Part shown: positions 1-64,000 of the stretch, in pieces
Layout: each line of letters begins with the position of its first letter
Numbering within the stretch: position 1 is the stretch's first letter
Source: Schmidtea polychroa
Taxonomy: Eukaryota
Reading direction: 5' to 3'
DNA: 64,000 nucleotides
Assembly: GCA_044892525.1 (NCBI GenBank)
Contig: CM097885.1
Coordinates: 8,000,001 to 8,064,000, forward strand
The notes under the pieces: model-generated
What the model saw: only the letters and a program-made list of their open reading frames with translations
What the model was told of the DNA's origin: nothing
Database searches by the model: none
Made by a program: the position numbers and the translations under genes

Positions 1-1479
<1,479 letters not shown>

Positions 1480-1976
1480 GTATTTTTGATTTCAGGAATT
1501 TGGCGAAATATTTAAATGATTACTTATAACGAGTAACGTGTGATGCGTTGCTAATTAGATTTTTAAATCCTATTATTAAATTAATAATTAAATTAACCGA
1601 AATCTATGTTAAGAAATAAATTATTACAAATTAACAATGAAATAAATTCAAAAAAATATTGCAATTTTTAATTATTTAAATTAAATTAATATTTTGTTAA
1701 ATTAATTTGTGTAAGTAATGTTTTCTAATCACAACAACTTTCCTTTAATATTGCTGTTACTGTTAAATTTATATTTTTAGCAGAAATACCGGAAATACCG
1801 GTATTGAGCCAAACCAATGCCGGTATTTCGGTACCTCAAAACAATTCCGGTACTACCGTTATTCTAACCACTAGTCAAATTTCTTGTTAAATGTCGTTTT
1901 TGTAATTTACAAAGTTGAAATGCATTATTATTATTATTATTATTATTATCATTGTCATTATCTATAACGTAATTAG

Positions 1977-2135
1977 GCAGCAAACCGTTATGGAATTGAC
2001 TATGGAGTTGTGTCAATCGTATTGAAATCAAAACCCAATCCACCGGAAAATGTGCAATGTTTAGAAATAACATCAAATTTCATATTGATAAAATGGGATC
2101 AGGGATTTGATGGGGGCTCAGATCAAAGATTTCGA
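1977..2135 (+). CDS. Nephrin/sns-like Ig-superfamily receptor, first visible exon (end of Ig domain, start of FN3); gene is 5'-partial
   Basis: AG..GTAAG-bounded exon reading AANRYGIDYGVVSIVLKSKPNPPENVQCLEITSNFILIKWDQGFDGGSDQRFR. The W--GFDGG--Q-F motif is typical of nephrin/sns/sidestep FN3 domains. An alternative acceptor at 1980 is possible. Confidence 0.88.
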
Positions 2136-2187
2136 GTAAGGCGTATTTAGGGAATCAAAAATAAATGTATTATCAAAATTCCTTTAG

Positions 2188-11484: not shown

Positions 11485-12760
11485 CACCCGTTTCCACATG
11501 TTAAAAGTCTCTATAATGCATGTTGGTGTGTTCATCAATCGATGACTCACCATTTATGAGAATGTTTATTTCATTTTTTCATTCTCAATTCAATTTTATT
11601 TATGGTTTTAGAAGTAAGTTTTTTAAATTTAAGTATATTTTAAGGCTTGAATTTTGATTTCATATAATTATGAGATCATTATTCAAGCTCTTAAATATTA
11701 CTTGTAATCAGCATTTATAATATAAAATATTGATAATTAAATTTCAGGTGCTTTTTTAGGTATTTTATGATATGTTATGAATTTGGAATTATTTCAATAA
11801 AATGTAAGTTATATATATTTTTAACTAAAAAGAAATAAAATAATCACCAAATACATTAATTTTTTTTCAAACATTTAGGAAAAAATCGGCGTATATGAAC
11901 GAAATATATTTCACGAAATCCAATAAATTGTTTCCTTGATCCTCTGATATAATTTGCTTTCGGCCACTTTTTTTGCCTTTTGAAACTTCACCATATTTTT
12001 TGTATCTATAAATAATGGTCTCAATCGATTTTTTGGAGATTCCCAGTAATCTTCCAAAATCTTTATAATTTTCTTTATTTTCATATGCATTGATGAGACG
12101 GATTTTATCATTTTCTGAAATTCTTTGAAAATATTATTTTTTTAAAATAAGTTATTAAAATTTACGATTTTCGAATTTTTTTCTTCAATTCCAAAGATGT
12201 CGATGGAACTTGTTGAATATCTTCACACAAAGGCGTTTGACTAGAAATATCTGATATGCTGTAAAATATTTTAATTATTTGTAATTAAATAAAAAAATTC
12301 TTACATTGTCAGATCTTCACCTTCGCAAAATGGAAATGTCTCCAAAGAAATATCTGAAAATCTAAAGAAATATTAACTTCAAAAATATTTTATAAATAGA
12401 TCTTACGATGTTTTGCCGTCCATTTCTCGAAAACTCAAAGTTGAGTGGTCAGATTCAAAATCCAAATTTTTTTCAGCCATGAATTTTAATAATTTTAAAT
12501 TAATGATATGTTAACAGTATGTTAATGACTCTCTACTTTCGGAACAAAAAAAGCTATATTAAATTTGCGTGTATTTTATATTATGTGTGCTGTGTTTGTA
12601 TGTAAAATTATTTTTCTGTCACTTTCTCAATTCCTATAATAAAACTTTTAACATTCGGAACATTAAATTTTTGCACACAGGTAAGTTTGTGTGTTGCTAT
12701 AATATAATTTTATCGATTTTTTTTTAGATTATAGAAACTTTTATATTGTGGAAACGGGTG
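11485..12760 (-). mobile_element. ITm-family element nested in a related copy, with intron-containing transposase remnant
   Basis: ~33-bp TIRs CACCCGTTTCCACA... with TA duplication at 11483-84 and 12761-62. The empty site GAATAAACGC is visible in the copy near 53600. Confidence 0.88.
11867..12480 (-). CDS. Spliced 159-aa truncated ITm transposase (N-terminal HTH only); exons 12480-12407, 12361-12305, 12258-12166, 12122-11867
   Basis: Removing three GT-AG introns (45, 46, 43 bp) gives an open frame MAEKNLDFES...ISENDKIRLINAYENKENYKDFGRLLGISKKSIETIIYRYKKYGEVSKGKKSGRKQIISEDQGNNLLDFV, a Tc1-like HTH with a GR motif. Confidence 0.7.
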
Positions 12761-28685: not shown

Positions 28686-29048
28686 ATCAAAATAAGTTGT
28701 TAAACCATCGAGGTGAAGCAAACACAATTACCAATATCACAAACGTTAATTCAATTAATCCTAAATCCAGTGAAGAGAGCATTCAGAAATCCACTTCTTT
28801 CATTGTCACAGTTGCTGGTTGCGTGTTCGGATTCATTATTTTGATAATAAATGTGTTGACGTTTGTTATCTGTTACAAGAAGAAACAGGAAAGAATTCGA
28901 AAAAGGCGACAAAGCAAAGAAGTTCAGTCAACTGACGAGAGACAAACAGAGAATTTGTCTAAGTACGATTCATCGCTGATGGAGAATCATCTTTATGACG
29001 GCTCGATTCTTGCTGCATCCGATTCGTGCTTCGTAGGAGAACTTCGAG
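28686..29048 (+). CDS. Nephrin-like gene exon (stalk, transmembrane helix, basic stop-transfer, start of tail)
   Basis: TCCAG acceptor and GTAAG donor, phase 1 to 1. FIVTVAGCVFGFIILIINVLTFVICYKKKQER is a hydrophobic TM segment with an internal Asn, as in the nephrin/sns family. Confidence 0.85.
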
Positions 29049-30170: not shown

Positions 30171-33100
30171 CAAACAAAAATACCTTTTATTACCTATACA
30201 TTTTTAAGTATAACGTAACTATTTCTTGTCAAGTCTATGTACTTATTGAGCACACTTGTCAGATGTCTTTCCAGGTAAATTCAGAAATTATCATCAAATT
30301 AAAAAATAATACAAAAATGGGATGTTTAATTAGGAAATATCAAATTATTTATATATATCTGTAAGCGGGTTTGGCGTAAAGGGGGCTAGAGTTGTCATAT
30401 GACTCGGGGTATGGAATCGAAAATTATATATATTTTACATAAATATGTAATCATATAATTCCATATAAGTAGTATGTAGTGATCACAAGGTCATCGCAAT
30501 GTCATAAAATATGTCAAGATCAATCAAATCATTTCAATTTTTAAATTTAAATTTTATTTATTTATTTAATTTTAATTTTATTAATTAATTATTTTATTTT
30601 TATTTTATTTTTATTTTATTTTAATTACTCTATTTAATTTTTAGTTAATTATTTTTATTTATTTAATTTTTAGTTAATTATTTTTATTTATTTAATTTCT
30701 TTTCTAGTTGTGTTGCTCCTTGATAAATTTTAATTATTATTATTACTTTTTTTTAGATAAATATTTTTATTTATTTATTATTATTTTTTACATTTACTTT
30801 TAATATATTGTAACAAGGAAGTAAATTATAACAAGAATATTCCAATTGAAACAAAATTTAAATAGTAATTATTTGATTTATTATATAGTAACGCTGTGTT
30901 AGAAAAAACAAAATAAACATGAAAAAAATAAATATTACTTTAAACGACTAATCTAAATTTATTTTAAATGCGACTGTTTACAATAAATAAAAATTAATCG
31001 GACAAATGAATTACTAAATAATAAAACGTATTTCAATTAACTAAGTCAAATTATTCACAATATATATTTTGTTATTCACATAAATTACACATTTAATTGT
31101 TAAAAGAATCTTGATTGTTTCGATTTGGATTCATTTCTTGACAGAACAGTTGCGACATGCATATGACGAATCTTATAGTGACCGTAGGTATATCTTTCAT
31201 TACAATTTAATCAATACCTTTTATCATTCAGACATTGGAAAGCTCGTTTTTTTGTCTTAAAAGTGTACAACTAATGATTGACACTTCCTATTCTCTTTTG
31301 AGGGATGCACACTGCTCCACTACTAACATACACTTTTTTGTAGGCTTCATGTGTGAGATTAGAATTTGGAAGACTTATTCCTTCGGCTTTCAGAGTGTCT
31401 TTATCGCTTTGAAGTGAGTATTGGTCATAAATAAGCGGACTACTTTCCTAAACTTCTATTTCTAGGCGTTCAAGAGGATGCAAATCACAAATTTTATTTT
31501 CATGATTTTTAACAGTAACAATTAGATAGTAATGTTTCAAGTATTTACCACTTTATTATAAACTTCAAAGACTCCGTTTAGTCCTATGCACAAAGTTTGC
31601 AACATTTATTAATACGTTAATTCGGTTTTCAGTGGAATTTAAGTAACTAAGTAACTAAGACCCATTGTTGCACATATGCAAACATTACAGTTTCATATTC
31701 CACATTTATTTCCAACACAACAATTTAGTAATTGACATCCTGTTTATTTGATTCTGTGAAATTTTATGTCAATCGTATTTCAATGTTGTTTGGAACTTTA
31801 ATCATTTCAAATTGTTATGTTCTCAGTTTCTGTTATTTGATATTAAATGTATTTTTAGATGTTTTTGATCAAATGTTTACTGCATTTTTTGACACGGTTC
31901 CTAAATTGCCATGTGGGCTACCGTAAATTATGAAATAATTTTTTCTCGCATATATTATATTATAAATTATTTACAAATACATGACGATAATTTATTCAAC
32001 CCCCCTCTCCACTGAAAACAACAAGTATATGTCAAAGATGTCTAATTTCTAATGTGAAATTATTTTTTTTCAAATTGATTGAAAATTGTTTGTTAATCTA
32101 ATTGATATGTGTTTGACCACTACAAATTTTTGTGGTTCAATTTTCAATGATTACACACAAAACGACTTCAATTAAACAAACATCAAAATAATTTTCCTCG
32201 GAATTTGTTTTCGTAAAAGCTAAAAACAATAAACAACCGTAAATAGTTCATGTTAGAAAAAATTTATTTTTTCGTGTTTATTTCCTCTTGAATCATTGAT
32301 CTCAACTTTCGATAAAATTTGAATATAAATAAAGGGAAAATAGGGGGAAAAGAAACTCTGACAAAAATCCAGATTATCAAAAATACATTTCGTACTTGAT
32401 TATCTAAGGGAAAAAAACGAAAGTTTTTGACAGATGTGACAAGCTAGGATTGAACAATTTAACAGAATATCAAGATAATAAATATTGATTCAGTTTATTT
32501 AAACAATGTTTTTGAAATTTTCAAAAAACATATTAATAATCACGATTGAAAATTTTTAAGGTTGCGGAAATTAAATTTTGTAAATAATTTATGTTGATGT
32601 GGTGGCAAGAAGAATTCCTATAATTAATTCATTCAGAAAGTTACTAGCTATTGAACTCCTTGTATTGACTGCGTCCATTATTGATATTTTTCAGGTGTAA
32701 TTATGACAATGTGCAAAATACACTTTTAAGGATTGTACAGTTGAGTCAATAATGTTTATTTTATAATATCAATACAAAATTAATTTTTATTTCAAATACT
32801 TGGCCCTTGTAGTTAATGGCAACGTTCCCTCTATTACCAGAGGGTCTCTGTGTGAAAAACCGAAAGGCTGTGCATGACAAATCACCAAATTTGCAAGTGT
32901 AACATTACTTATACACTGATACAAAATTGGTGACTTAACATTCGTAGTTGATGTTATTTTTTGATTTCATTTTTTTTTATTTTAGAAAATTCAAATTAAA
33001 TTCAAATAGTAAAACTTTTGTTTGGTCTGATGATTTTAGGTGTCAATTCAAAATCTTACATAATTATAATACTGTTTTAAAAATAATATAATTGCAATTT

Positions 33101-35931: not shown

Positions 35932-37925
35932 AGTAGTAGGATATGTCACCTCCAGGGCACTCCTCCCCCTGCGGAGGAAAAAGTTAAGCCAAAAATATGT
36001 AGGTCAAGTCAAACTTTTTGAATTTTCACTATTTTCTTATGGTTTTTTGAGAAATGCTTTTAAGTTTTTATGAAATTGGACTGATTTTATCGATTTTTTC
36101 ACAAATTTTTATGTAGTTTTTATGTAGGTCAAGTCAAATTTAAACATGTGTCACCTCCAGGACACTATATAAAATATTTAGGTCACGACTATATAGTTTA
36201 ATTAATTACACACACATTCTATATAGTATAATTATTTTACAAGTCTATATAGTTTAATTAAGCATGTCATACACACCAAATGGGTGTAGGAAAAGTGACT
36301 GTGTGCGTGTATGTGTGTAAAGAGCAATAATTAAGGGCAAAATCATGAAATTCCTAATGAAACACATAAATTGGATAAAATTATATGTTTTTAGGTTAAA
36401 AGTGTGTGTGCCTGTACAGAAAATTGTCAATAAGGAGCAATAATTAACAGCAAATTTTATACACACGCATCACTCGAAAGTCTACATGATAGTCATATAC
36501 TTGGATTGCATATGCATTTGTTAATCATGCACATTTCTTGCACAAGTCCTTGTTTAACACGCGCGTTTATGCTTAATGATAAAATAAAATACATATTTAA
36601 GATTTATTGATTAGTACATGTACAGTCTTTATCTCTTCAATCCTTTTCATTATATTCTCTACTACAGGGGTCGGCTAACTTTTCCATGGCCAGAGCTACT
36701 TTTAAAATCATGTGGCTTCAAGATCGACCTCTTTTTTTAAAAAAATACATTAAAATACAGAAATATAATATTTATTAAAACAAATAATGTGATGAATGAA
36801 ATTGCTTTGCATCCAATAGTTTCTTCATATCCGAAGAATAGTTTGTAACAGCCAATCTTAAACAATTAACCAGATTTTTATTGGTAAGTTTTGTTCAATA
36901 TTTATTCTTTATTAATTTCATATTTGAAAATATGGATTCACACAAGTACGTTGATCCAAAGAGGCAAGATATTTTTAATGCAACATCTCTTAAAAACGGA
37001 TACTGATTCGGTGTTACATGGCTCCAAAATTCCAATTGATTTTTAGAAAATTCGCAACTCAACTCTATATCATTTTGTATTGAAATTAATTCCATTTCTA
37101 GCCGTGCTTTATCATATCCAAATTGGTTATTAATAACTTCCGAGAGAGTTTCGATATTAATATTTACGGAAGGATACATAATAAATTTCACAATTGGTTC
37201 GATCTTGCGGAAATCTGCAAAGCGTTTTTCAAACTCTTCTATTAAACTACTAACAATAACTTTCACAGGAAAATGGAGTTGAACAATTATTAATCTCTTC
37301 TTTTAAATTAGGAAAGTGCTTTAAATCAGTTTCTATTAGGTTCATTTTCCTCAGGATTAATTTTTGGCTAAATCATGTGCATTATATTTTTATCTTTCCC
37401 TTGCAGATTTACATTCAAGTCATTTAACTTCGCCGTAATATCAGTAAGAAACGCAAGATCTCTAAGCCATGAAACATTACTTAGCTCCTGATGATGTCCT
37501 TCCAAAAATCAACTTATTTGTCATAAAAATTTTCTAAAACACTTTAAAATGTTTCCCTTACTTGGTCCACGAACTTCTGTATGTAATAACAGATCACCAT
37601 ATTGACAATCGAGCTCGTCGGTTAGTCCTTTAAATAAACGTCTTTGCAGTGATTTCTCTCTTATTATTGTAGTTCTTAAATTGACCTACTTAATTTTAAC
37701 TTGACCTACATATTTTATATAGTGTCCTGGATGTGACACATGTTTAAAGATGACTTGACCTACATAAAAACTTAGAAAATTTTCACGAAGCTCCATGGGA
37801 AAATAGTGAAAATTCAATAAATTTGACTTGACCTACATATTTTTAGCTTAATAATTTTTTAGCCTAAGTTTTTTTCCTCCGCATGGGGGTTAAGGGTTGT
37901 CCCGGAGGTGACATATCCTACTACT
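35932..37925. mobile_element. Non-autonomous Polinton/Maverick-type element with ~230-250 bp TIRs
   Basis: Termini AGTAGTAGGATATGTCACCTCC ... GGAGGTGACATATCCTACTACT; arms ~35932-36185 and ~37700-37925. Flanks GACAAA / AGCAAA may be a degenerate 6-bp TSD. Confidence 0.75.
36665..37670 (-). pseudogene. hAT (GTF2IRD2/SPIN-like) transposase 3' part with one TIR
   Basis: YGDLLLHTEVR, WLRDLAFLTDITAKLNDLN, EFEKRFADF, LFGSTYLCESIFSNMK and a terminal ..SH; end sequence CAGGGGTCGGCTAAC at 36665. Confidence 0.88.
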
Positions 37926-46840: not shown

Positions 46841-47615
46841 TGTCGAACCCATATCTTACGCACGCCCATATCTTACGCAAAAAGAAAAAAATTACTAATA
46901 CAAATTTATAGATTGTCTATCGGCACAGCCAATAAAAAGATGGATTGACATTCATGATGAAATTGTCTTTAAATATAATACAACATGGCATAGAGCAATC
47001 AACACGACACCAATGAATGCTTTTAGAGGAAGACAAAGAAGCGAAATGAGAGAAAACTTATTGTTGGAAAATATTAATAATGAAAATTCACTTTTAGTTG
47101 AATCAGATGAATATACTGATCTAGTTGGGGATTTAAACACCAATAATAATGGCAATAGCAATGAAAATGAAAGCATTAATGCTGAATCAAATAGTGAAAT
47201 TATTCGAGAAAGCCTGGTTGACCAAAATTATCGAAACAGATATACCAGAAGAATGGTGAGTGATGCAGATGTTCACTATCATTCTATTACTTTTAATCCT
47301 GGAGAGCGTGTCTTGGTTAAGAAATCTTTTGATGCAAACACAGAAACAAGAAAAAGAAAAATGGAAGATTTTTATGAAGAAGGAAGTTGGATAATAATAG
47401 AAAGAGTTGGAAACGAGTCTTTTAGATTAAAATCGGATTTGAATGAAGAAAATCACATGGTGGTTTGTAAAAATAGGCTGAAAAAGATAATTTAGAAAAA
47501 CAATAATTAAATTTCATTGCTTTAATTGCTTTTTATATAATATTTTGGTGTTTTTATTGCTTTTTGTTTCTTTGTGTAGAATAAAAAAATTTTTGCGTAA
47601 GATATGGGTTCGACA
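46841..47615 (+). mobile_element. Ginger-like (Gypsy-integrase-related) DNA transposon deletion derivative
   Basis: 22-bp perfect TIRs TGTCGAACCCATATCTTACGCA and a 5-bp TSD TTTTA, with an internal integrase C-terminus. Confidence 0.88.
46914..47495 (+). CDS. Integrase-like transposase C-terminal exon
   Basis: Open frame after TTTATAG: RWIDIHDEIVFKYNTTWHRAINTTPMNAFRGR (integrase W---L--V---YN---H-----TP) and FNPGERVLVK...YEEGSWII (GPY/F-like module). Confidence 0.8.
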   Translation, partial: CLSAQPIKRWIDIHDEIVFKYNTTWHRAINTTPMNAFRGRQRSEMRENLLLENINNENSLLVESDEYTDLVGDLNTNNNGNSNENESINAESNSEIIRESLVDQNYRNRYTRRMVSDADVHYHSITFNPGERVLVKKSFDANTETRKRKMEDFYEEGSWIIIERVGNESFRLKSDLNEENHMVVCKNRLKKII

Positions 47616-61060: not shown

Positions 61061-61822
61061 AAATAATTGTATATCTTACAGAATATTTTCAAATGGGTGC
61101 CGAAAATGTACACAAATGATAAATTTTAAACTTTTTATTTTAGTTTAAAATTTATTTCACAGATATCATAGTTTCTCTTTGAGATTTAATACTTGTTTAT
61201 AAAATTGTTGTCATCTGCTATAAATTGATATATTGGTACCAAATCAGTTAATTAATCAATGATTAATCTGCTGTCTATAATTCGTCCAGTGTTCAATTTG
61301 TAGGAAAATATAGTAATATTTTTATCTTAGATTTTTTAACTCAAAATTATAATTTGAGGTCACAATGTACATTTCAGCTGAATATTTTTCAAAAAATCCT
61401 TTATTTTTTGTTTATTTTTGATCTATTTGCTTTTGATATTTCATTTATTTTTAATGAGACAGTAGGTCCATGGCCCCATTAACCATAGGGCTAATTGGGT
61501 TACAGCCCAGGGGCGCCATCGATCCGAGGGCGCTAAGAAAACAAGATGGTGAAATTTAATTGCTTTTTTTAATTTAAAAAAAAAGTAATTTTTTTTATAT
61601 TTAGCGTATCTGTGATTTAAGTTAGTAATGTGTTCAATGTTATATTTTTTCTCATCCATATAAACCATGTATGCTAATGACCTAACTTCTGTAAAGATTA
61701 AATTCGACTTTGATTATATTTTAAAGTATCACAAACTTTTATTAAAATTCTTATAAAAATTACCAAAGAAAAAAAATACTTTATACATAATTATTTAATC
61801 ACATTTAAAACCAATTTTATTG

Positions 61823-62115
61823 AGTAGGTAGATGTGAGCCCGCTGGCACAAAGACCTATGACTCATCACTTTTCAGTGATGACTCATCGTGTAGAGGGTG
61901 AGTCAGGGGTCACGTGGGTGTATCATATGTATGTGTATGACTCATGGTCTTTGTTCTACGACGGTTCAAACCCATCATGTCGGGTGTAAAGCATGAGTCA
62001 TATATATTTTTCAAAATTTTTCTAAGTTAGAACAAAGACGTGTATCCCCCCCCCTGCAAAAATTTTTTATGACTCATACTTTTTCAAAATTTTTCTAAGT
62101 TAGAACAAAGACATG
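61823..62115. promoter_or_regulatory. Putative Polinton TIR with six TGA(C/G)TCA motifs and a ~33-bp direct repeat
   Basis: Motifs at 61859, 61880, 61899, 61938, 61994 and 62070; CACGTG at 61911; TTTTTCAAAATTTTTCTAAGTTAGAACAAAGAC occurs twice. Confidence 0.65.
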
Positions 62116-62505
62116 TAACTCCTAGCATTAATTTTTATGAAACATTATTATTATTTCAAAATATTACTATTATAATTAATATTATTATTATTGATATTAT
62201 TACTATTTAAATTATTATTATTATTAAACATCCTTAGTATTAATAATATTATTTTTTAAAATTATTGAATGACTTTAATATTGCATTTGAATTGCATCTT
62301 TCTTTATTAAACTTGCAACTGTATTGCCGCTGTCTTTCTTAATCATATATTTTTTAAATTTTTTATTATATTTTAAAAACTATATTTAACTTGCAACAGG
62401 TGCTGCTATCTTGTATATTATTTGTCGATTTTTGATATAAAATTAATATAGTTACTTTGTTTTATTTTTAAAATAAATTTACAAAAAATAATTAACTAAA
62501 ATTTA

Positions 62506-62790
62506 TTAATTAACACATTCGCAATCGTCATCTTTACATTTCATAACCTTTTCGATGGGATGATCTATACAATCATTTTTAATATTTTCCAGATCTTTAG
62601 CTTCATCTATAGGCTCATCAATTTCTTGGGTGTCATTAGTTTCTTAACTATCATCGGTTTCTTCAACTTCCTGATCATCAATTCCAGAATCTTGACTCTC
62701 TGATTTATTTAATATGCTAGAAACATTTAATATGTCATCGATTTTTACACCACTTATTTCTGATAGTTTTTCCAAGAAAAAGATGATTAT
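62506..62790 (-). pseudogene. Polinton accessory acidic ORF with an internal stop
   Basis: FLEKLSEISGVKIDDILNV...DDQEVEETDDS*ETNDTQEIDE...MKCKDDDCECVN*; internal TAA at 62644-46. Confidence 0.55.
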
Positions 62791-62981
62791 ATATTTAAAT
62801 AATAAATATTTCGAAAATTAATTAATCATATTAACCTTTTTCTACAGTCATTATTAACAATTTAAAACTAAAATATAAGTTTGTTTATACATTGTCTTTG
62901 TTTAGGTTTGCATGTGTTTTGCATTAATATTGCAATTTCATCGTTAATAAAGTGAACAACAAATATGATTAAATACATTTA

Positions 62982-63366
62982 TTAAATTTCAAATTTTTTA
63001 TACAACAACCAAGCTAAACAATGTTGACCACATGTTTGAGTCAATGGATTTTGAAACATAGTTTTATTATACACAATAGGTTTTCCCATTGTTTGTAGTT
63101 TTGATATCATCAAAGCCGGATAATAGAAACCCATAGGATCGAACACGAATATATTACCAGGTTTCATATATATAGCTATCCAGTGTTCTCCACCAAGATG
63201 AGACGATTGAGTATTGACGATTATGGCTTGATTATTGCTCAAATATGGAATTTTATCGAGAGGAAAAACTCCTACAAATTCATTTCCTAATATTTATTTT
63301 CCAATTTGATTAACCTGAACAGAACTACTTTAATAAATTAAACAGTATAAAAAAAACTTACTCCAT
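62982..63366 (-). pseudogene. Adenain-like (adenovirus-type) cysteine maturation protease
   Basis: FVGVFPLDKIP, IIVNTQSSHLGGEHWIA (His), VFDPMG (Asp) and FQNPLTQTCGQHCL (Gln, Cys). ATG at 63366, putative intron 63361-63328, premature TAA at 63294-96. Confidence 0.9.
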
Positions 63367-63393
63367 GACAGCTTTCTATATTTCTGTATACAT

Positions 63394-64000
63394 TTATACC
63401 AACACGGTTCTATTTGCAGTAATTTGAACTTCATTTTCAAATACTCCATATATTATAACATGTACTGGTTCTGTAATGGCTATTGCAAACTTTATATCTA
63501 GTCGTAAATTCCCGTTTTGTGGTAATTGACTCTGATTTAAATCAAATTCGGGGGCTAAAACAAATGTGAAAAATGGGTATTTGATTTTAAAATCTTCAAG
63601 AGTTATTCCACAATTCAAATTTTTATCTAAATAGCCAAGATTTCTAACAATACTCTGCATATATGTAGCACAGTAATTATCACTTTCGAAATCTTGAGTA
63701 TATGTTTCTCTATAATCAGTATTTTTCGACAAAGTCAATGATGTAACACCAAAGTTTTTAAAAATTGAGCTGGAAGCTGTATAAGACCCATTATATTGTG
63801 TTTCACTTTGAAATGTTACCAGAATAAAATTAGGCATTCTTCTGTCCCCAAATATTTGTTCTTTATAGAATGACGAAGCACCTTTAGCAATAGCGAATTG
63901 AACAATTTCCTTTGTTTTTAATGGATAAATTGCATGTTTTGAATTAAGACCCAATTGATGACCAGCTAATACTGAGGGATCCACTGGAACTCTTCTTACC
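63394..64000 (-). CDS. Polinton/adintovirus major capsid protein (double jelly-roll), C-terminal part
   Basis: VRRVPVDPSVLAGHQLGL..HAIYP, IFGDRRMP, YNGSY..SSIFKNF and GNLRLDIKF..VIIYGVFENEVQITANRTV match Polinton MCP C-terminal motifs; adjacent to the protease. Confidence 0.85.
   Translation of the reverse strand, partial: VRRVPVDPSVLAGHQLGLNSKHAIYPLKTKEIVQFAIAKGASSFYKEQIFGDRRMPNFILVTFQSETQYNGSYTASSSIFKNFGVTSLTLSKNTDYRETYTQDFESDNYCATYMQSIVRNLGYLDKNLNCGITLEDFKIKYPFFTFVLAPEFDLNQSQLPQNGNLRLDIKFAIAITEPVHVIIYGVFENEVQITANRTVLV

Follow-up and report, generated by a model that had tools for sequence, protein, structure and literature searches.

Among the described elements closest to the locus studied here are the Mavericks of vertebrates, which combine an integrase-to-protease gene module, a double jelly-roll capsid protein, an adenain-type protease and terminal repeats that start with AGT (Barreat & Katzourakis, 2021; PMC8097293). 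According to the available text of that study, intact elements contain no introns, and their ends carry one of the motifs (AGT)2, (AG)3 or (AC)3A. Our locus shares the capsid fold, the adenain and the AGT start of a putative terminal repeat, and its relatives share the gene module, but it differs in other respects: its protease gene contains a conserved micro-intron, as predicted here, its end reads AGTAGG, which is none of the three motifs, its protease points towards the end of the element and not towards the centre, and a TBP gene is present in two related loci, L002 and L022. Adintoviruses (Starrett et al, 2021; PMC8502044; Buck et al) resemble the locus in their hexon and adenain and its relatives in an rve integrase, possibly with a chromodomain-like tail, and an FtsK/A32 ATPase; the accessible portions of both sources do not mention splicing of adintovirus core genes.

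Nematode Mavericks (Widen et al, 10.1101/2022.07.12.499685; Jeong et al, 10.1101/2023.08.22.554363) have the same core gene set and, in some polymerases, an HNH-type insert. They differ from our locus, as far as the available texts go, in that the core genes are called "intronless" (Widen et al) and introns occur in cargo genes only. Spliceosomal introns inside polinton-like proviruses are found in the introner-bearing maverick-polinton-like elements of dinoflagellates (PMC11957031); the accessible text describes introners as young, intron-making transposons that were mostly gained after integration, whereas the locus described here appears to carry one old intron at a fixed position. A spliceosomal intron in a core gene is likewise not mentioned in the available parts of PMC11296320, PMC5718144, PMC3014272, PMC12220804, 10.64898/2026.10.13.758929 and Jeong et al. 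Among the titles and opening lines of abstracts in the literature we found no spliced Polinton protease gene, and Repbase, subscription papers and the annotated supplements of PMC8502044 may hold spliced models.

The window, that is, the whole stretch of 64,000 nucleotides analysed here, ends inside an element of this kind (Table 1). Judging from comparative sequence evidence, the locus is very probably a real Maverick/Polinton end, slightly decayed, with a conserved micro-intron that is spliced out of the protease message. As a Maverick end this decaying copy is ordinary; of moderate interest are the predicted intron and the putative promoter boxes embedded in it.

Table 1. Annotated features of the element end, in window coordinates.
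Feature	Position	Strand	Basis and remarks
Putative terminal inverted repeat arm	61823..62130		AGTAGG start, GC-rich first 170 nt, TGASTCA words, direct repeat, C8 run
Acidic Cys-tailed accessory gene (most likely)	62506..62851	−	likely start 62851; body to 62509; AATAAA overlaps stop
ATAAAC box	62883..62888	−	only one on the minus strand of 61823–64000; 37 nt before ATG 62851
Protease exon 2, adenain-type cysteine protease (whole gene about 115 codons)	62982..63324	−	Pfam, alignment; in-frame stop 63296–63294
Predicted spliceosomal intron of 37 nt in codon 2 (phase 2; GTAAGT ... TAG)	63325..63361	−	comparison of related loci
Protease exon 1 (start codon + 2 nt), predicted	63362..63366	−	ATG-N-A before GT in 12/12 distinct lineages
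TATA-like box (ATAAAT variant), putative protease promoter	63392..63397	−	overlaps capsid stop codon; 31 nt before protease ATG
3′ part of the major capsid protein gene (C-terminal 201 codons, coding for the second jelly roll)	63394..64000	−	homologues, fold model; open, runs past window edge

The capsid frame, described as open in the preliminary description of this DNA, runs without interruption for 201 codons on the minus strand (63999–63397), from the window edge to a stop at 63396–63394. A search among longer proteins returned 46 matches among 734 candidates, of which 45 are full-length (402–418 residues, 51–97% identity) and the last is a short chimeric one. The closest relative, P0001 (97%), heads a cluster of 11 and agrees with the window at 195 of 201 residues; one of the six differences falls in a column that is invariant in 45/45 relatives. 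An AlphaFold model of P0001, built on the 45-row alignment, reached a pLDDT of 85.7 and has two beta-rich halves. It matches the double jelly-roll capsids of grouper iridovirus (the best match, E 2.6e-17), PBCV-1, mavirus and Sputnik, as well as viral structure models, and its best fold match in BFVD is an unnamed protein of a bracovirus record (24% identity). By its modelled fold, the protein is thus a double jelly-roll major capsid protein of the Maverick/Polinton type, and structure prediction bears out the capsid assignment made earlier. A profile search yielded 8196 relatives at E 0.001, without names or context. In Pfam, neither the fragment nor five full-length relatives matched a family, with only three sub-threshold matches, and no PHROG family, PDB sequence match or match among phage records was obtained. 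Viral contigs contained no relative by capsid, capsid alignment, protease alignment or an 18-nt end pattern; the prokaryote genomes searched gave two loci, one on a short capsid-bearing contig and one marginal, both of which were left out of the analysis.

Of 76 candidate stretches in metagenome contigs, 31 code for a relative and serve as the related loci below. The longer ones carry on one strand an ATPase, an integrase, a minor-capsid-sized gene, a short PW-like gene, the capsid and the protease, with a polymerase on the other strand. From the integrase through the minor capsid, PW-like and major capsid genes to the protease, the order is that of the module in vertebrate Mavericks (PMC8097293). 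In L022, the integrase has an rve domain (E 1.4e-12) and a tail that resembles Chromo below the cut-off (E 7e-4), and the ATPase is A32-like (Pox_A32, E 5e-6). The polymerase, of the protein-primed type, adjoins homologous capsid genes in six related loci; that of L002 matches phrog_1907 (E 5e-20). Because the related contigs add integrase, ATPase and polymerase to the capsid, protease and end block seen here, the stretch is identified as part of an integrated Maverick/Polinton (polintovirus), very probably one end of it, in an AT-rich, apparently animal-type genome; the virus-like element proposed in the preliminary description therefore holds, with capsid and adenain in the window and the other core genes in relatives. 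With regard to the adintovirus types Alpha and Beta (PolB with an N-terminal OTU domain; PF03175 for Alpha), none of the polymerases of L002, L006 and L022 matches PF03175 or an OTU family at E 0.01, and all three contain an endonuclease VII domain; the element's own polymerase, like its integrase and ATPase, would lie beyond the window.

The related loci also contain genes outside this set. TBP genes (PF00352) are present in L002 (2160–2618, plus strand, E 3e-17) and L022 (2393–2866, plus strand, E 2e-18), and TBP is named in a figure legend in the accessible part of PMC8502044. L022 has an accessory gene for a ubiquitin-conjugating enzyme (225–722, minus strand, E 2e-12) and L001 one for a RING-finger protein (1665–2168, plus strand, E 2e-6). 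In L021 and L022, the PW-like gene is preceded by a tandem pair of minor-capsid-like genes of about 350 codons, named so by position and likeness. Directly behind the protease, a gene for a Cys-containing protein of about 150 residues is found in L004 (3309–3785), L022 (9591–10052) and eight more loci; it matched no Pfam or PHROG family.

The protease frame of the window (63293–62985, minus strand, 103 codons) scores 28.9 bits against Pfam Peptidase_C5 (PF00770; cut-off 21.3). The catalytic residues reported earlier are all in place, with the first bases of their codons at 63185 (His), 63140 (Asp), 63053 (Gln) and 63032 (Cys). The His-acid-Gln-Cys set and its flanking motifs are those of the adenovirus protease (PDB 4piq, 1avp), with whose chains the His and Cys motifs align, but the sequence match is weak (E 0.003) and the adenovirus protein has 204 residues, compared with about 115 here. 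The frame contains no in-frame ATG before the catalytic His. At 27 nt past the capsid stop, an ATG-GA is followed by GTAAGT, a T-rich tract and AAG-TAG, and excision of the 37 nt from 63361 to 63325 brings a 12-residue N-terminus into frame with the protease; an alternative acceptor 3 nt earlier would give an intron of 34 nt.

This arrangement recurs in relatives. The protease is present in 18 of the 31 related loci, and 15 of these have the same ATG-NA/GTRA..AG/ layout with 37–47 nt between the two boundaries; they represent 11 distinct lineages (12 with the window), a sample biased to close relatives. Across the 12 lineages, the GT, the A at +4 and the AG are invariant, and G at +5 and T at +6 are each conserved in 11. 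The interior is hardly more similar than expected (identity 0.47 versus 0.44 from composition), lengths span all three classes modulo 3, and L021 and L022, whose capsids are nearly identical, differ by 2 nt inside the intron. In every lineage, the unspliced message would encounter a stop at codon 2 or 3 (Met-x-stop). Within 132,269 bases, the donor motif occurs 23 times, 16 of them at protease starts (one, in L001, at a contig end) and 7 elsewhere, compared with 7.8 in shuffled sequences. Database proteins point the same way in part: of 15 independent protease relatives in the protein collection, four start with the donor read through as protein, four have a clean Met start, and the others are truncated or unclear. 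Branch-point-like words are absent from the introns of 6 of the 15 loci, and a scan of the 31 loci for other start-linked introns gave no convincing case beyond the protease. Sequencing runs contained part of the stretch in 20 of 24 rows, with no RNA run among the matches listed.

We conclude that the protease gene is most likely spliced, with a 37-nt intron right after the start codon. To judge from its fixed position and unalignable interior, this would be one old intron, held in place across elements of about 47–60% capsid identity. L008 and L027 encode the same 12-residue N-terminus with the insert absent without trace, and in L024 the protease starts without an intron behind an extra gene. 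Since 3 of the 18 loci have no intron, it appears dispensable for the function of the family. A quick capsid tree requires two changes of intron state, a number reached or undercut in 60–63 of 500 shuffles; intron-less L008/L027 lie in an open fork and L024/L025 outside, an arrangement in which gain and loss are not orderable.

An explanation that dispenses with the intron is a capsid-protease fusion made by ribosomal frameshifting or read-through, along the lines of the "Hexain" idea (Buck et al, 10.1101/2024.03.25.586562, in its accessible part), or else a non-AUG start. A few cases would suit it: the protease frame is open back into the capsid in P0087 and, over 30 codons, in L017 and L021, and P0160, a long capsid match, includes a protease-like stretch. 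In most loci, however, stops interrupt the protease frame between the capsid end and the protease body, and the spacer lengths fall in all three classes modulo 3, with the 2-nt shift noted above even between near-identical copies. Stops and free changes of length in the spacer argue against fusion by frameshifting, which would also leave the fixed GTRAGT and AG unexplained, and we regard this explanation as very improbable.

On the spliced gene model, the two premature stops announced in the preliminary description are confirmed, one in protease exon 2 (63296–63294) and one in the acidic frame (62646–62644); a third stop in the protease frame, at 63332–63330, falls inside the predicted intron and is no lesion. 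With one stop in each gene, this copy would make neither the protease nor the full acidic protein. Intact relatives, which the same description had thought might exist, were found: their frames are open over the full length, and the protein collection contains a 95%-identical protease without the stop.

The end of the capsid gene appears to contain a second signal. In 13 of 14 related loci, the last capsid codons contain an ATAAAC box, 30–46 nt ahead of the protease ATG, and such a box also precedes the capsid gene in 14 of 14 related loci (background 0.10 per 70 nt). The box encodes the terminal Ile-Asn of the capsid, for which 11 of 12 lineages use ATA-AAC, whereas none of the 17 other Ile-Asn pairs in these genes is encoded that way. 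Because of this difference in codon usage, the box would be a signal at the DNA level; the binomial figure for ATA-AAC usage treats related lineages as independent and so overstates significance. The window differs from its relatives in that its capsid end reads ATAAAT, not ATAAAC, and the capsid stop falls within this box; this accounts for the longer spacer between capsid and protease here.

Between the protease and the end block lies the acidic, Cys-tailed frame (62817–62506, minus strand) of the preliminary description, with 29 Asp and Glu in 102 codons and Cys residues near its end. Read from the ATG at 62851, the acidic body is in frame only after removal of a 76-nt intron whose donor is weak (62835–62760), and the odds for and against this candidate intron are about even. 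We consider the frame most likely a fast-evolving accessory gene. Were it instead decayed or chance AT-rich sequence, one would understand why the 57-codon stop-free piece matches no Pfam family, why the frame has no match among the 635 ORFs of the 31 related loci, and why it contains an internal stop and needs an assumed intron with an unusual donor to gain an in-frame start. Such an origin is nonetheless quite unlikely: on either side of the stop, GC content by codon position (0.50–0.55, 0.20–0.26 and 0.16–0.23) is gene-like, although the acidic composition accounts for part of this, the single ATAAAC in the element end stands 37 nt before a suitable ATG, and related elements carry acidic accessory frames, one of them Cys-tailed (L022). 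The small acidic gene recalls the make-up of the adintovirus "Oncoid" genes as described in the available text of PMC8502044, but has no strict LxCxE, CxxC or CR1 motif; one relaxed MxCxD and one CK2 site are present. That its product binds host chromatin or cell-cycle proteins, as proposed by analogy with "Oncoid" genes, is a guess that we hold to be possible at best and rather doubtful.

The preliminary description had placed a terminus at an AGTAG. This 5-mer is indeed found at 61823, but by itself it was rejected as evidence for an end, since outside one microsatellite it occurs about 1.06 times per kb on both strands, which is the chance level. What stands is the block behind it. GC content is 0.47 over 61823–61990, a value reached by 0.03% of 168-nt windows, and 0.12–0.16 just to the left, where the flank reads TTATTG. 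The word TGASTCA, the AP-1/GCN4 consensus, occurs six times in the 308 nt of the block, between 61859 and 62076, compared with 10 times in the other 63.7 kb, and none of 2000 shuffles contained more than two; the related loci have no such cluster. The block further contains a 43-nt direct repeat (at 62007 and 62080, 93% identity). All 100 shuffles fold less well than the block (z −2.9), which was set aside as separate evidence since it follows from the repeated near-palindromic words, and an Rfam search of 61500–62300 gave a single match, judged to be chance. The start AGTAGG agrees with (AGT)2 at five of six positions, that motif list being for vertebrates only. On these sequence properties, we regard the block as the putative terminal repeat arm of the element; a partner arm was found neither in the window nor in the 31 related loci or the viral contigs, and a 6-bp target-site duplication, which takes the second end to recognise, was not seen.

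No polymerase lies between the protease and 61823 in the window, whereas six related loci have one next to the protease, so either the genes are ordered differently here or the apparent end is something else. The block could belong to another element, nested or satellite, such as a gene-less one with borrowed Maverick ends, or the copy could be internally deleted and have lost the adjacent polymerase. In keeping with this, relatives place the polymerase right behind the protease, converging with it within 0.3–2.5 kb in the six loci, and the window lacks both a partner arm and the conserved gene of about 150 residues found behind the protease in 10 of 17 loci. Against it, the GC step is sharp and coincides exactly with the AGT start at 61823, and the interval is filled by a boxed accessory gene in the same orientation with a poly(A)-like signal. 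Module orientation moreover varies among vertebrate Mavericks (PMC8097293), and the closest capsid relatives, a clade of 18 rows, come without DNA context in which the gene order could be read. A nested or deleted end is unlikely, and we retain the reading of the block as the putative arm of this element.

Taken together, these features suggest how the protease may be expressed. Its gene would be transcribed from a short promoter of its own, the ATAAAC/ATAAAT box that lies within the last part of the capsid gene, some 31 nt ahead of the ATG; host RNA polymerase II would start behind each box, perhaps with the aid of the element's TBP, and the host spliceosome would remove the 37-nt intron from codon 2. 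Because the unspliced message reads Met-x-stop, protease synthesis would need both nuclear transcription and splicing. From what is known of the family, the protease would then act in capsid maturation, like the adenain of adenoviruses, and insertion of the element through its terminal repeats would have been the work of the integrase. The acidic gene, as we weakly infer, may be a real accessory gene that uses the same promoter box and perhaps an intron of its own.

Should the intron prove genuine, a widespread Maverick lineage needs the host spliceosome to express a gene for virion morphogenesis, in contrast to the usual "intronless" description, and late gene expression takes place in the nucleus. 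A single RNA junction would then provide a simple marker of late-gene activity, which bears on whether Mavericks make particles. Gene callers that ignore the intron would give the protease false starts or call it broken, as in 4 of 15 database proteins, and intact elements would consequently be undercounted. One may imagine a layered programme in which AP-1-type words in the terminal repeat couple the element to host stress or wound signalling, the element's TBP reads the ATAAAC of each late gene, and retention of the micro-intron gates the timing and amount of protease. This is speculative and probably not the case; if true, virion assembly would be bound to the nucleus, and a virophage-like existence inside the cytoplasmic factory of a giant virus would be ruled out.

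Elsewhere in the window, an isolated relic of a Polinton-type polymerase C-terminus (31160–31420, minus strand, about 85 codons) is 40–48% identical to the polymerases of six relatives; it lies 30 kb from the element end, with no other element gene near. Transposon relics are present at 11870–12133 (minus), 36898–37302 (minus) and 46899–47492 (plus), and comprise a Tc1/mariner-type HTH (E 6e-8), a dimerisation domain of hAT type (E 0.001) and a frame that resembles an integrase tail (E 3e-4). Two near-duplicate stretches with an AAT microsatellite (2–328 and 848–1201, minus strand) stand about 870 nt apart. Finally, a spliced host exon at approximately 28689–29048 (plus strand; AG ... GTAAGC) fits the invertebrate host inferred in the preliminary description, although not decisively; it encodes a transmembrane helix, a basic stretch and a cytoplasmic tail, the layout of a single-pass, receptor-like protein, and has weak Atlas leads to animal proteins.
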